A stretch of 64,000 bases of DNA from Octopus vulgaris (taxonomy: Eukaryota): assembly GCA_951406725.2 (NCBI GenBank), contig OX597831.1:45322001-45386000 (forward strand). Reading direction: 5' to 3'. The notes beneath the pieces are model-generated. The model made no database searches. It was not told where the DNA came from and worked only from the letters and a program-made list of their open reading frames with translations. Shown piece after piece: positions 8,720 through 57,309 of the stretch (its first letter is position 1; the number at the start of each line of letters is the position of its first letter). Both the position numbers and the translations under genes were made by a program.

Positions 8720-8959
8720 CATATGGGATTCCATGTGTGCAGCAGCTGCCACCGCCATCGAGAGGCCATGGTAAGAAGGTATATTGGCATTTGGCCCACC
8801 TGGTATTCCAGCTGATGTCCCATTGGAATGTGGCGGTGGTTGCATTATGTTGCTTGGACCTCCTGTCAAACCTGGAATCATACCGGGAGTTGGTTGACCT
8901 TCGGCATGGTTGCGTAGAACCAATATGGCATCATCTAAACGTTCTTCCATCCTAGTTAG
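8720..8959 (-). CDS. TCF12: E-protein exon LTRMEERLDDAILVLRNHA...HMESHM (AD2 helix)
   Basis: Acceptor ttctccaaacag|CTA, donor ATG|gtgaga; 240 nt, phase 0 to 0; RLDDAI.VLRNHA is the conserved AD2 helix. Confidence 0.97.
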
Positions 8960-13676: not shown

Positions 13677-16600
13677 CTTGTGTAAATAGATCGTATCGTA
13701 GATACTTTAGCCCCCAAAATCAATTTTACCTACTCAAGTTTCATATTTATATGGGTGGCTGTATTATACACCCACACACTTGTATGTATATCATCATCAT
13801 TATCATTTTACATCTGGTTTTCCATGCTGGTATGGGTTGGGTAGGTTTTTTGTTGCAATTTGTAACAAGGGAAACAAGAAAAAAACAAACTAAAAAAAAA
13901 ACACAGGGTTATGTTGGTGCATGTGCTTACAGTGTGGACTTCATGCATTTTATTAGGCCACAATCACAAAAGAGGTTGTCCCCAGAGAAAGATTAAAGGA
14001 TTTTTCTGATCTGAAACAGCTCTTGGAATTCATAAGTTGCATCATAGATTGACAGGGTTTGCATATTAATCAAATTTTCTATGGCTGGATGCCAATCCTA
14101 TCATAAACCGCTTTACAGAAAGTATTGGGTGCTTTCTATCATGCCATCAACATGACAGAGGGTACCTATGTGAATGTGAGGACTAAAGAGTTCTCTGTAC
14201 TCTGTATCATCAGAGCTTATTTGAATGTGCTGCCCTCCTTGGAGGTTTGCCTGTGATATTGCTTGTCGAGTCCACTTTTGACGTTTTGTTTTTGTGTAGT
14301 CTTTATGGCTAGATACCCTTTTTATCAGCAATTACTTCACCAAGTGTAGGAAGTCACATAAAATATATGTCCATATATATGCATAGAACACAGCTAATGT
14401 CATTTGAAAGTTGTCTAGCTAGCTACAAAGCATGATATATACTAAGGTTGCTAAGTGTGGAAGAATGGCAATATTATAGACAGTACTTAATCATGAGCTA
14501 GATAAGATCACTAATTCTGAAATTTGCACAAATTCTCAAAGGAAGTGATTCGGGTGTGCTTGCTCTGGTCAACTACACAATGAAAGTTGTAAGCTAGATT
14601 TCTGCAAGGCAAATGGAGAGGGTAACACAATGACAATAGCATTGCTAAAAACTTACCATAAAATCACCTCATCTGTCATAACAAGAACAACAATAATAAT
14701 AAGAATAATGATGATAATTATCTTGTAGTCAACAGAGCTGACTCCAGAATATTAATGATAAACATTCTATCAGTTCTGGAAGAATGCAAAGTAAAAGTAG
14801 CTCTTCAGAGATTTCAATTCAGAACAGTGAGTCATGGAATTAGATACCAAAAAGCTTCCAGTCCACTACTCTAGTTCTGGCATTATTTTCAAAAATCTAA
14901 TTCTCCAGTTCAATTTATAAAGATTTCTAACACTGACACAAGCCAGAATTTCTGTGACCTTCATGCCTTTTGTCAAAGCATTAACAATTTCATTGTAGTC
15001 AAACTCGAAACTGATAGCTGATCACAAAATTTAGTTTTTTTGAGAGCTTACTTCTATAATACTCACCAACTTTCTATGTTATAATAATGATGATGATGAC
15101 GAAAAAATTATATGAAACAAATATAGCATCAACTGCAAATACACAGAGTTAAGGAACCAGTTGTAGACCTGACCCACTTGTTTTGCTGTGTACTTACACA
15201 ATTTTACAAAAAATATGACCAATGACATGAAGACCATAACAGCATCTAGCCGGCGGAACAAGAGATCTTTCTTGAAAAACTATCAAACTTATTTCATGAA
15301 AAATTACTGAGCCTCAAAATACTTAACCTTTCAAAACTTGCAAATGCCTAATGTGTTAGTCTTATCTCGTGCATTTGGCCATGAACAAATAAGAAAATAT
15401 ACACTATCTCAAATTAATGCTAAATATCAAAATCATCAGTATTTTTACTCAATTATCATAATTGCTACACTTTCAATCTTGGTTTGACAGCATGTGACCA
15501 TTTTAGTTTGTGTGCTAGGCCAGTGCACTCCAATTCAGATTTCACCCAACTATTTACCCAGTGCAAAGTTGATCTATTCTAAGCTGGGTTAAAGTTTCAA
15601 TTTAAGGATTGTTCCTGAAACTTCATGTAACTCTAACAGTGGTTTGCACTAACAGCAAAGTTGAAGACAGATTTTAAAATCATTTACTTTCTGAAACTAA
15701 TATCAAGCCATCTACACTTTGTCCACCATGTTTTCCCTCTAATAATACATATTATCATAAACTTTCCCACCTAGGGATATTTTAGCCATTCTAACTTAAT
15801 GATTCTATTTTGAATTTATAGTGCATTTTAATGTAAAAGAAAAAAAAAATGAATACACTAACTGGATATATGTTGAGTGTAAAATACAAAACAAAATTTA
15901 TGTTTATAGCATGCAAACATCTCCACAGTTTTTTTTATGATCATGCTGACTTTCTTTGCAAATACAAGGCAATATATTAAGCACTGGTGCACCAGATTAC
16001 CAAATCATTCCTTGATTTAACCATTCAATATATTATAATTCTATCAACTGTAACTCTTTTTTTTTTTTTCAGAGAAATGAATGACCAATCAAATCACGCA
16101 GTCTATCTTCTGCTACCATGTTACTGCTTAACCTGGTGCTGCTGTAGAAGCAAGACAACTACAGTTGGAGATGTTTTCAACACACATTCACAGCAAAATT
16201 TAACACGGAATAACATAATAGAAAGCCTACCTTCTGACTGTTCTTGTTTTCTCCCCTGCTATAGCGTAGCTTTAATGAAAGATAAAAACAACAGTTTACC
16301 ACAGTATTGAATGAAGTTTAATTTTAAAATGAGCAAAACAACGATAAAAATGCATCGCAGTCTTTATATTGTTTTTTTTTTAATCCTTCAGAATTGTGGA
16401 AGAACCTACAGCAAAAGTTTATCTTAAGCATTTAACATGCTTGATTCCCCACGAAGCCTGTATACCTCATATTCATTCCCCATGAAGTATGTATATCTCA
16501 TATATTGACCCACATGACTACAGTTATTGGTGTATATAAGTGTGTGAGGATGTATGAGTGTATGTGTGTTGGCATGCTGCATGGGATGAACCGGTGTACA

Positions 16601-16977: not shown

Positions 16978-17057
16978 TAATGAATGAAGATGGTTGTCAA
17001 AATGTGGCGAGGTAGTGCTGCTCTGAGTGCTTGGTCGCTGCCAGTGACTAGTTGGGC
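16978..17057 (-). CDS. TCF12: E-protein exon (G)PTSHWQRPSTQSSTTSPHFDNHLHSL
   Basis: Acceptor atttcag|GC, donor TTA|gtaagt; 80 nt, phase 1 to 0; similar to TCF4 GTAVWSR...SSPNYEGPLHSL. Confidence 0.94.
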
Positions 17058-18903: not shown

Positions 18904-18982
18904 CTGACATAGGAGGAGGTGATGATACTGGAGTGGAAGGGTTCGAGCCATAACTGCTGTTAGTATGTTCTGTGGAGTAGAT
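18904..18982 (-). CDS. TCF12: E-protein exon IYSTEHTNSSYGSNPSTPVSSPPPMS(G)
   Basis: Acceptor gttttctag|ATC, donor G|gtaaaa; 79 nt, phase 0 to 1; similar to TCF4 [23 protein letters not shown]. Confidence 0.96.
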
Positions 18983-23590: not shown

Positions 23591-23815
23591 AGAGGCTAAT
23601 GCTTTTCCTAATGTGTCTCCTGTTTGTGTAGTTCCTTGATTACGAGAGGCCTGCATAATATCAGAGCCATTCACTGTAGGTGAAGTGTTGGAAAATGTGG
23701 ATGATGACACAGGAGGCACAGTAGGTAGCGTGTTGCCACTACTGCGAAATGTTGACATAGGAGGAAGACCTGATGATAGCATAGCTTCATGATTTGGGGA
23801 AACAGTATGGTAACC
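23591..23815 (-). CDS. TCF12: E-protein exon GYHTVSP...LPPMSTFR...QTGDTLGKALAS
   Basis: Acceptor tttttag|GGT, donor TCT|gtaagt; 225 nt, phase 0 to 0; LPPMSTF and TGD.LGKALAS motifs. Confidence 0.97.
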
Positions 23816-35059: not shown

Positions 35060-35205
35060 CATGTCATGGGTATGATGCATGCCACTGTAAGTTGATGGCT
35101 GACTATAATGATGGGAACTACTATTGTGTAGAACTGATGAAGTGTATGAGGATGTAGGAAGGCCATTATTTTGAGACCATGGGTCGCTAGAACTATGTGG
35201 ATTAT
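35060..35205 (-). CDS. TCF12: E-protein exon (D)NPHSSSDPWSQNNGLPTSSY...SGMHHTHDM
   Basis: Acceptor tcttgacag|AT, donor ATG|gtaagt; 146 nt, phase 1 to 0; similar to TCF4 DGHHSSDPWS. Confidence 0.95.
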
Positions 35206-38671: not shown

Positions 38672-38885
38672 TTAACCCTTTTGTTACTGTATTTATTTTC
38701 AGATGCTCAGTGTTTTTTTCAATTACTTTAAATATAACAAAGAATTTAGAAAAATAACTTAGTTACCATTAAGCTAGTGTTAGGAACATAAATTGTGACT
38801 AAGGTTTGGTGGAAGATTTTAATTCAAAACTTATGAAAACAAGACATTTATACTCAGAGCCAGAGCCGGTTTTAGCCGGGTTGAA
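38672..38885 (+). mobile_element. piggyBac-like MITE family B
   Basis: TTAACCCTTTTGTTAC start; high similarity to the 10557 copy. Related older copies at ~32575-32803 and ~38330-38490. Confidence 0.75.
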
Positions 38886-38975
38886 GGTCCAAATGGGAGG
38901 TAGGAAAGGAAGCAAGCTATTAACCACAAAATTTTGATTTGTAAAATAACGGAGAAAGAAATATTAAGTACTCAC

Positions 38976-39063
38976 CGTACATATAGGACTCATAGATACT
39001 TGGTTTTGGAGACGGATACTGCGGTGAATCTTGACGGTACTCATCTGGGCTAGGTGAGTAAAC
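38976..39063 (-). CDS. TCF12: E-protein exon VYSPSPDEYRQDSPQYPSPKPSIYESYMY(D)
   Basis: Acceptor cttttgaag|GTT, donor G|gtgagt; 88 nt, phase 0 to 1; similar to TCF4 VYAPS...DYNRDSPGYPSSKP. Confidence 0.95.
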
Positions 39064-41724: not shown

Positions 41725-42770
41725 GTAAATTCTAACAGAGCCACAAGGCCACAAATTTAGAGAATGGTGTAATTAATTAAATACAAATTGCTTCATTGAC
41801 CTTGTAAGGATGAAAGGCAATATGAAGCCCTAATGGGATTTAAATTCAGAATTTGTTCAGAGATCTACTGATTCTGTCATTCACAGCCTTTTTTAATAAT
41901 AACAATAACAACAACAACAACAACAATAATAATAATAATCCTTTCTACTATAGGCATAAGGCCTGAAATTTGGTGGGAAGGGATTAGTTGATTACATTGA
42001 CCCTAGTACTCAACTGGTACTTATTTGACCCTGAAAGGATGAAAAGCAAAGTTGACCCCAGCGGAATTTGAACTCAGAACATAAAGATGGATGAAATACT
42101 GCTAAGCATTTCACATGACATGCTAACAATTCTGCCAGCTCATTGCCTTAATAATAATAATAATGGTTTCAAATTTTGGCACAAAGTCAGTATTTTGGGG
42201 GGAGGTACATCGATCCCAGTACTCAACTGGTACTTCTTTTATTGAGCTCAAGAGGATGAAAGGCAAAGTCAACCCCAGCATAATTTTAACTCAGGATTCA
42301 AAGACACAAAATACCGCTAAGCATTTTCCCCAGCATACTAATGATTCTGCCAGCTTGCCGCCTTATTGTAATAATAATCCTTTCTACTATAGGCACAAGG
42401 CCTGAAATTTGTGGGGAGAGGACTAGTCGATTACACCACCCCCCCAGTGTTTCATTAGTACTTAATTTATTGACCCTGAAAGGATGAAAGGCAAAGTCAA
42501 CCTCGGCGGAATCTGAACTCAAAACATAGTGACAGGTGAAATCCCGCTAAGCATTTTGTCCAGCGTGCTAATGATTCTGCCAGCTCGCCACCTAAATTAT
42601 AATAATAATAACAGCAGCAATATCTAACTTTTATCATAACAACAATTTCTAACCAAGGCACAAGTGTATTTTTCATGGAGAGTATAATCGATTAAGATCA
42701 ACTGGTGCTTATTTCCCCAAACACAGAAAGAGGAAAAGCAAAGTCAATTCAGACAGAATTTGAACACAGG
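41725..42770 (-). mobile_element. Head-to-tail array of ~5 family 1 SINEs
   Basis: Units starting near 41725, 41937, 42163, 42375 and 42645, each preceded by (AAT)n. Confidence 0.85.
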
Positions 42771-43672
42771 CTATTAAAAAAAAACTTTAAAAAAAAAAAA
42801 AAACTAAAGAAACTGCAAAAACGAATAAAATTCTGGTTTATAAATCTAAATAACTGAGCTCCATGTGTAATGCTGAAGGCCGATGCAAAAATATGAGAAG
42901 AAAATAATCCTATGTGGTAAAAATATTCACTTGCAAGTTGTTTAATATAAAAAGCAAGAAATTAGTTTCAATAACTCCGAGTAAAATCCAATGTAGATAT
43001 CCAATATGTAAACTTAAGAGTAGGTCCAATTTGGAAATATTGAAGGTAAATTATACATCAAATCAAACTGGACATTAGGGCAGTTCACTAAAGTTCCAAG
43101 ATGATGTAAATGAATATCCAATATAAGAGATAGTTAAAGGAAAACAGTCAGTCCTTTGGTGCTTAACTCCAAATAAATCCATATAGCATCCAATGGAGAT
43201 GGCCACAAGTAGAGAGGTCCAAGTCAGGTTCAATAAAGACAGAAGAGAGAAATTTGCAAAAACACATATATACACACTAAAGAAGGGCAAGTATTATTAA
43301 ATTGGTTTGTCTGAATGTGTGTGTGTGTGTGTGTGTGTGTAAACATACAGTGAAAGAGAGAGAAATAGATATTTAGTTATGAAGTAGATGAAAGTAGTCA
43401 ATTATATTTACCAAATAAACAACAGATATATAAATTACTTACTGTCTCAAGACAACATTGTATAACTTAAATTATATCATGAAATTACTATAATTAACTA
43501 ACCATACTACCTCAGAAAATAACATTATATAACTACCTAAATTGTAAACAAGCTAATTCCCAAGCTAATTCATTAAGTTCAAAATAAAATATTATATAAG
43601 TGAAAAGTAAATAAATCTAACCAGAAAAACATTTTTTTCAGTAAAAAAAAAAAAAATATATACTATACTCAC

Positions 43673-43732
43673 ATTTCCTTTGGGAGGGAGGTACATAAGG
43701 GTTCTATAGAATGGATATGTTGTACAATACAT
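43673..43732 (-). CDS. TCF12: Candidate alternative first coding exon C, HEBAlt/TCF4-A-like (MYCTTYPFYRTLMYLPPKGN)
   Basis: ATG at 43732-43730, 20 open codons, donor AAT|GTGAGT, phase 0. MYC...YP...LMY pattern as in the vertebrate Alt domain. Confidence 0.75.
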
Positions 43733-45447
43733 TGTAACTAGTTTCAAAAGATGAGCGAAAGTGAATGAATCAGACTATTCAGCTGGTCATTAGATCCAAA
43801 GTGAACAAATTAGACCAATATATGTTCAGAGACATTGAGAACCCAGCTACAAGTGACCACTCACAGCTATAATCCATTAGTTAGAAGAGAAAGAACTTTT
43901 CCAATTAATTCACATTATTATGAAGTAACTTTCATAAACTAATCATTGCTGTTGTTGATGATAATGATGGGAGATGAGAGATGATAATGAGCGTAGTAAA
44001 ACCTTGGTATCAATTATCTACTTAGCTGTTTGAAAGAATAGTAAAAAGCCTTCATGAATGGACAGGTATTCCTCCTAGTATGAGACGCCAAGATTATTAG
44101 GCCAATGTGGGAAACAAGCTAAACTAAGAGTAGAGGTTCAGGCAGCATAAGCTGAAATAACATCTTTGTCTGGTAGTAGAAGTTGGTTTCTTAAAATTCA
44201 GCAGCAGCAGCATACATGGTATCACCAGCACAAGCCAGTCTATTCACAGACTTGCAGTAGTAGGATTTAAACTAGGTTAAGAATGTGATTTGTGTCAACT
44301 TACAAACTAGATTATTGCATACTGTGTTGATTCTAGAGAGAAGGGATAATTTGACAAAAAAAAAAAAAAAAAAATCTACATCAGTAATAAGTTAGGGTAC
44401 ATCTCTCTTTTTCTCTCTCTCTATTTCAAGAACAGTTATTAATAGTTTAAAAACATTAAGTTTTGCAATAGGTTTATTATATTTGTAGTTCATCCCAAGT
44501 GTGTGTGTGTTCACACATGCTCACACAAACACAACATAAATAGTGTTAAGAAAGAAAAAAAAGAAGAGGATAAAAAACAAGACAAAGCTAACACTTGCTA
44601 AATGAAAGATTTTAAATAAGGATTTTTAAATAAAAATAATAATAATAGTAACTTGATACAAGAAATTGTTTTTTTCCCTCCCTTTGAATTAGTACTAAAT
44701 TAATTAGACCTGAGCAAAAAACATTTAAAAATACAAGAAAAAAGCTAGAATTATAACAAATCCTTACTTTTATACATTTTTTTTTAAAAAATGGAAGGAA
44801 AAGTCATTTTATGAAATATTAATATAGTGTTGTGGGTATGAAGTGGGGGTGGGACAGGATTAAAGCCTAAGCATACACAAACTTTATTTTTAATGTCAGT
44901 AAAGCCTGGCATTTAAGTATAAAATTATTTTAATTCTATATCTTCAAATATGAATACATAGGGGAACAATTTAGGAAAAGTTATTAATTCTTTTTTGACA
45001 GACAAAACAACTACGGTTTTATTTTATTTTATATACAGAAGGAGAGGGTGTGGCCATCAATACTCTACCAATATTAAATTATAATAGGTGAATTGTGTGT
45101 TAAAGGGAGAGACAAGAGATGGAGCATGGGGTGTATAGACTTGGTCAAAGCAAAAAAGAAAGGAAAAGGAAAAATTGGGTCAAAAGTATTTTTACAAAAA
45201 GTAGCAGCATTTCTCTCAATGGTTTAGGATCATGAGCTAAATTTCATCAAGAATCAACAGCAAAATTGGGGGAAAATATACATATTGCTTCTTTTTTTTT
45301 TATATTTCCACTAATAAACTGTTCAAACTAAAGTCCTTCTTGAGCAACACATTCATTAATAATAGCAAACAGCTAATGCTGTCAGAATTAATTAAATAGA
45401 AAGAATTATCCAAAATATAAAACTGTTTATTTCACTGTGTGTGCGTG

Positions 45448-57267: not shown

Positions 57268-57309
57268 CTCATGGTAAAATTGTAATGGCTTTAGCTCAAT
57301 ATAATCCAT
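57268..57309 (-). CDS. TCF12: Candidate alternative first coding exon A (MDYIELKPLQFYHE)
   Basis: ATG at 57309-57307, 14 open codons, consensus donor GAG|GTAAGT. Phase 0 matches the VYSPS exon; unique non-repeat flanking sequence. Confidence 0.55.

Follow-up and report, generated by a model that had tools for sequence, protein, structure and literature searches.

A conserved, unannotated exon of the Octopus vulgaris E-protein gene and its probable homology to the vertebrate Alt first exon

The window analysed here is a stretch of 64,000 nucleotides of the Octopus vulgaris genome (contig OX597831.1, positions 45,322,001 to 45,386,000 of the forward strand). It holds the middle part of an E-protein gene of the TCF4/TCF12 type, which lies on the same strand as the short exon described below, here called the Alt exon. 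The exons in the window match, mostly at 100%, Octopus proteins that carry the name transcription factor 4 or 12, and the host is a class I bHLH gene, PF00010 having been found on protein record P0011. The exons encoding the bHLH domain lie past the low end of the window. In a stricter first look, the genome search returned 19 exon-sized matches on a single contig, all around the window. The long-form exon that precedes the Alt exon ends with KRRKSGS at a GTAAGT donor in phase 0, at about 69560 and some 5.5 kb outside the window, so that the intron before the VYSPS exon measures about 30.5 kb. The Alt exon is a unique coding exon within this intron, the one directly preceding the VY[AS]PS exon. 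It stands 4.6 kb ahead of the shared exon at 39063-38976 and in frame with its VYSPSPDEY (Table 1).

Table 1. Features of the octopus E-protein gene in the window (positions count from the first letter of the window).
Feature	Position	Strand	Remarks
Second candidate alternative first exon, MDYIELKPLQFYHE	57268..57309	-	donor GAG/GTAAGT, phase 0; same intron as the Alt exon
Acceptor-like site, T tract ending in TAG	44333..44374	-	66 nt upstream of the furthest contig end
Upstream part of the Alt exon (likely 5' UTR; 535 nt or more)	43733..44267	-	contig extents
Alt exon, coding part	43673..43732	-	ATG at 43732, 20 codons, MYCTTYPFYRTLMYLPPKGN, phase 0; relatives conserved
5' splice donor GTGAGT of the Alt exon	43667..43672	-	contigs in four of four runs depart from the genome here
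First exon common to long and short forms, VYSPSPDEY...	38976..39063	-	AG acceptor, phase 0
Shared exon DNPHSSSD...	35060..35205	-	
Shared exon GYHTVSP...GDTLGKALAS	23591..23815	-	
Shared exon IYSTEHT...	18904..18982	-	
Shared exon PTSHWQRP...	16978..17057	-	
Shared exon MEERLDDAILVLRNHAE...	8720..8959	-	

Two further features of the window were observed beside these. High-copy repeats, with a depth of tens of thousands in all four sequencing runs sampled, occupy 41800-42680, within the intron that separates the Alt exon from the shared exon, and 38700-38920, immediately beyond the latter. A small exon region resembling LRYSRGENKNSQK, at 16228-16284 (-) between the shared exons at 16978 and 8959, matches octopus isoforms and is absent from the related record P0004.

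An ATG exon ending in phase 0 at a GTGAGT donor had been proposed in a preliminary description of this DNA, and it is confirmed at 43732-43673 (-). The same description held the exon to be easily missed by annotation; as an N-terminus, it is absent from all 19 cephalopod-type protein records. No separate octopus cluster of short forms stood among the top matches of the protein search, and Pfam gave no match to the 20-residue Alt peptide, which likely lies within a disordered tail. The exon is real, conserved and unannotated. It is an alternative exon of the octopus E-protein gene and very likely represents the octopus Alt form.

Related N-termini at the VYSP junction were found among molluscs (two snails and a mussel) and annelids (two tube worms), and the conservation that had been suggested as a check is thereby seen in these species. 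They read MYCTNPFYRPFMYLPTKLTN in isoform X10 of Pomacea (P0233, XP_025081085.1), MFTSSYTYPMYPPPFVYLAPGSQSKGNY in Bulinus (P0059), MFYSYPVYPPIGMYLPTKVSG in Mytilus (P0240, VDH91719.1), and ...MFCTTYPYYRHLVYMPGKLGA in the tube worms Ridgeia (P0044) and Lamellibrachia (P0045). Relatives thus occur in five of the 35 named non-Octopus lophotrochozoan genera among the records listed, a count based on the best 120 of 3,514 matches with at most 15 members per cluster. In a blind scan with four N-termini from snails, mussel and annelid, the ATG at 43732 ranked first among the 1,527 candidates of the form ATG...GT that the two strands of 124 kb contain, with a score of 49.5 against 9.8 for the next. 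The mean of 49.5 against the four lophotrochozoan relatives corresponds to a shuffle p of 0.0002, and each of the five peptides (octopus and the four relatives) reached p 0.0002 against the rest, which is the floor of the shuffle; Lamellibrachia, being identical to Ridgeia, was omitted from the scoring. When the annelid Alt region (P0044, residues 11-52) served as the query, the two annelid records came back and nothing else. The listed isoforms of Ptychodera, Diadema, Owenia, Lineus, a chiton and a clam include no short form, but this carries no information, since the octopus exon too is unannotated.

The scan and the shuffle test bear on the objection, namely that the exon is a chance open frame or intronic transcriptional noise. 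Its length of only 20 codons, the missing Pfam match and the absence from the 19 cephalopod-type records would all suit this view, but a first rank among 1,527 candidates by a five-fold margin, against independent relatives, makes it hardly credible. The shuffle test contradicts it too, as do contigs that stop following the genome at the donor in four of four runs.

These contigs come from a sample of four of 24 listed sequencing runs, taken from four studies, of which three were guessed to be RNA and one is of unknown kind. The region 43640-44300 is partly present in 20 of the 24 listed runs, none of which is recorded as RNA. Each of the four sampled runs yielded one contig, extending from 43671 to 44267, 44258, 44192 or 44139, with 400-535 nt of sequence upstream of the coding part. 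Past the donor, every contig carries exactly 28 further letters, which do not continue into the intron. In leaving the genome at the donor they look like RNA-type contigs; a DNA contig would be expected to run on into the intron. On the intron side, the bins from 43120 to 43561 showed a depth of 0 in three of the four runs and of 2-3 in the fourth, where it came from separate contigs. The two letters after the exon (GT) are compatible with both the intron and the shared exon. Together with the 28 they make 30 letters, which would be the overlap at which a 31-mer assembly graph joins the long form, 31 being presumably the word size of these assemblies. The constant number of 28 extra letters thus points to the shared exon at 39063-38976 as the splice partner of the Alt exon. 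Junction reads had been named earlier as a check, and the outcome is partial: departure at the donor is seen in all four runs, and the partner exon is deduced.

The beginning of the short form is less directly visible: the 5' ends of the contigs lie at 44139-44267 and carry no extra letters, but contigs cannot show a start. This leaves room for a reading in which the Alt exon is an internal cassette, spliced in via the acceptor-like site at 44333, with a regulatory or poison function and an ATG that is rarely used. The T tract with its TAG is strong, and the leader at 43733-44267 (-) contains 11 upstream ATGs, every one closed before the main ATG, with open reading frames of 1-32 codons; it is possible that these upstream ATGs damp translation of the short form. 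The cassette is nevertheless very improbable, for no contig of the four runs reaches 44333, and its use left no sign in runs X1 and X2, where the depth of the bin 44225-44445 (2.76 and 1.54; contig depth cannot rank isoforms) is wholly and exactly accounted for by the Alt contig. The variation of the contig 5' ends among runs, with no loose letters, also speaks against it, as does a peptide conserved as far as annelids whose relatives bear the annotation of N-termini. Contigs that lack additional 5' letters and stop short of 44333 are most simply read as a first exon of 595 nt or more. No TATA-like motif was found nearer than 44774.

Joined to the shared exon, the Alt exon predicts a short E-protein of 618 residues, made up of the 20 residues of the Alt peptide and residues 210-807 of P0011. 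This form is without the N-terminal segment DKELSDLLDFS (residues 30-40 of P0011), which is identical in vertebrate long forms and is taken to be the core of AD1. The segment is encoded in exons upstream of the Alt exon, in line with the earlier claim that the Alt form removes AD1. The short form is also without the basic cluster KRRK (203-206), which adjoins the junction, and it retains the central region and the bHLH domain. By analogy with human TCF4, the octopus cluster may work as a nuclear localization signal. According to the available part of a study of TCF4 (PMC3137626), the matching human region, in exons 8-9, has a bipartite signal of this kind, TCF4-A is without both this signal and AD1, and the location of TCF4-A is decided by partners such as NeuroD2 or Id2.

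Taken together, it is probable that the Alt exon is an alternative first exon with an internal promoter, spliced in frame to give a 618-residue short E-protein homologous to HEBAlt and TCF4-A. Expression would likely be driven by the internal promoter and be followed by an in-frame splice to the VYSPS exon. If the octopus protein behaves as TCF4-A does, it would still dimerise and bind E-boxes, would activate differently without AD1, and would lean more on a partner for nuclear entry. Promoter choice could then constitute a cell-type switch of E-protein activity, by which some cells receive a partner-dependent form devoid of AD1, and the peptide, rich in Tyr and Pro, would be a small regulatory tag. 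In mouse HEBAlt, as reported in the accessible part of PMC9385190, mimicking phosphorylation of the YYY motif raises activity about 10-fold in a JAK-dependent manner, and the tyrosine seen phosphorylated in E2-2Alt is the last one. The motif is not conserved in octopus, which has MYLP where HEBAlt has MYYY and thus a Pro at the position of the last tyrosine. Since octopus keeps only the first Tyr of YYY, control through JAK and this motif is probably a vertebrate addition. The ancestral Alt core may have been M-aromatic...YP...R.L..Y, to which the JAK-sensitive YYY would have been added in vertebrates.

The vertebrate Alt peptides present in the database are HEBAlt (P0085), a TCF4-A-type form (P0253) and those of hagfish (P0267) and pike (P0283). 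Of the two peptides quoted in the preliminary description, that of HEBAlt agrees exactly with P0085, and that of TCF4-A matches P0253 overall and differs from it at three central residues. Against four vertebrate Alt peptides (hagfish, dugong, TCF4-A-type and pike), the octopus peptide reached a mean score of 19.8 (shuffle p 0.0097), above the mean of every other non-vertebrate peptide scored, and against HEBAlt alone p 0.032, with M-[YF], YP and [LM]MY as the aligned features. The other four lophotrochozoan peptides gave p 0.056-0.48 against vertebrates. Among control N-termini, two of 15 fell at p <0.02 against vertebrates, and a control from another junction scored 26 against HEBAlt, compared with 20 for the octopus exon. 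When HEBAlt was the query, no unrelated ATG among the 1,527 candidates in 124 kb stood above the Alt exon (20 vs 17). A score of 35 against HEBAlt was rejected because it arises from read-through past the donor into the intron, the exon proper scoring 20.

In octopus, snails, mussel, annelids, crinoid, corals and mammals alike, it is at the same V of VY[SA]P that the long form and the short form part. Several unrelated mollusc N-termini use the VYSP junction as well, so position alone is not proof. As the sequence likeness is moderate, at a shuffle p of about 0.01-0.04, and the controls come close, the link between octopus and vertebrates depends mainly on the shared junction. Judged by sequence alone, homology is suggestive; when position, length and motif order are considered together, it is likely. 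Of the vertebrate match claimed at the outset, the junction and phase agree and YP and MY align, with moderate significance and with YYY absent.

Alternatively, a real lophotrochozoan first exon could be independent of the vertebrate one, if isoforms devoid of AD1 arose convergently at a junction that recruits first exons. Such recruitment is illustrated by unrelated short N-termini on the shared exon in Pomacea (X8 and X9), a scallop (two) and Tubulanus. Tyr/Pro/Met-rich controls score close to the real peptide against vertebrates, and the crinoid short N-terminus (P0384), whose likeness is not significant (global p 0.59-0.66; local p 0.10), bridges neither the lophotrochozoan nor the vertebrate side. 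Convergence is still considered unlikely, as the order of motifs (M-aromatic, YP, MY, and K or G near the end) is common to the peptides, the length is 20-25 in most records, and the Alt exon is unbeaten against HEBAlt among the 1,527 candidates in 124 kb. The sea urchin form, moreover, is called conserved in the title of a published study, considered below.

The 30.5-kb intron also contains another candidate first exon, with its ATG at 57309. This ATG ranked first of 2,350 against isoform X8 of Pomacea (40, next 36) and against record P0257 (39, next 30), both of which are joined to the VYSP exon. It was the one convincing octopus relative obtained when ten other mollusc alternative N-termini were searched in 144 kb. 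These similarities make it plausible, at the level of sequence, that the E-protein intron holds a second conserved candidate first exon, of the pattern M[DE]Y.EL.PLQ, in octopus and snail. Short Tyr/Met-rich N-termini at other junctions were also observed in molluscs and a hemichordate (P0027, P0029, P0043, P0164, P0172, P0234 and P0410), and human TCF4 too has alternative N-termini at other junctions. No convincing octopus counterparts of those N-termini were found in 144 kb.

Short isoforms of stony corals (records P0401 and P0397) extend the comparison beyond the Bilateria. Orbicella X5 (XP_020608522.1) and Oculina X7 (XP_078356550.1) carry a 20-residue N-terminus, MWRHPYPHQRPLLPYHARGK, that joins VYSPGADD, and the long forms branch at the same residue. 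The coral and octopus peptides are of equal length and align ungapped with 6 of 20 residues identical. Their score was 24 (p 0.002; best of 15 controls 18), and the coral peptide gave p 0.005 against the five lophotrochozoans and p 0.013 against vertebrates, in a comparison made after the records, which are automatic annotations, had been seen. With the coral peptide as a query in global alignment, the 1,721 candidates in 144 kb were headed by the octopus exon (24 vs 15); in local alignment, the octopus exon fell outside the top four on either strand. The two coral records are 95% identical overall (558/588 columns), and Orbicella and Oculina therefore count as one witness. The crinoid peptide does not fit the series formed by coral and octopus. 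Homology of the coral N-terminus with the octopus Alt peptide has an even chance. The further proposal, that the coral, the octopus, snail and annelid, and the vertebrate Alt peptides go back to a single first exon in the common ancestor of cnidarians and bilaterians, so that the switch would be pre-bilaterian, is just as finely balanced. Two JGI records, P0359 and P0428, are a short and a long form that diverge at the Alt junction; their 10-residue N-terminus, MFYYSRPSYQ, is not significantly like the octopus peptide.

Schrankel and colleagues reportedly argued in 2016 for an Alt form in the bilaterian ancestor. By its title, their paper (Schrankel et al. 2016, Dev Biol 416:149, doi 10.1016/j.ydbio.2016.05.034) reports that the purple sea urchin has a conserved Alt form, SpE-Alt, and the work is cited in the accessible text of PMC6433000 for non-gnathostome loci resembling HEB/E2-2. 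A 2012 review (PMC3346973) describes Alt, in its available portion, as conserved through vertebrate evolution, and the accessible text of Murre 2019 (PMC6317319) makes no mention of HEBAlt. No literature describing an Alt exon from molluscs, annelids or cnidarians was found in a search that had most subscription journals outside its range. In view of the 2016 report, the headline inference of the preliminary description, which dated the isoform switch to the bilaterian ancestor, has probably been published already; the date is thus largely pre-empted and, considering the corals, may be too young. Mollusc and annelid isoforms of the Alt type are already in RefSeq/GenBank, and an invertebrate Alt is not new. 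The coral N-terminus at the Alt junction and the second candidate first exon at 57309 are possibly the new elements.

The exon corrects the octopus gene model for a shared partner of proneural bHLH factors, which is relevant to cephalopod brain development. The protostome sequences separate ancient Alt residues (the aromatic residue at position 2, YP and one Tyr) from vertebrate additions (YYY), and swaps could now put the long-obscure function of the Alt domain to the test. Should the coral form prove homologous, a 20-codon first exon has been kept since before the split of cnidarians and bilaterians, and the Alt exon predates T cells and centralised brains by far.

Among the known systems, the annotated short isoforms of Pomacea, Mytilus, Bulinus, Ridgeia and Lamellibrachia clearly represent the same exon, with scores of 29-74 against the octopus peptide, and are filed merely as numbered isoforms or as plain TCF4/12. 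Unlike these RefSeq/GenBank isoforms, the octopus short form is missing from the octopus records examined. The likeness of the coral short isoforms to the octopus Alt form is weaker than that of the mollusc and annelid isoforms. SpE-Alt of the sea urchin is like the octopus form in being the Alt form of a single invertebrate E-protein gene, whereas the only echinoderm short form found here, that of the crinoid, is not significantly like the octopus peptide. HEBAlt (from TCF12) and E2-2Alt/TCF4-A of vertebrates have 23 residues against 20 in octopus, which is without their Gly/Ser-rich middle and has YYY reduced to one Tyr. They are the same as the octopus form in that a short unique N-terminus is set on the VY[AS]PS exon, in that AD1 and the upstream basic cluster are replaced, and in the M-Y-C start, YP and LMY.
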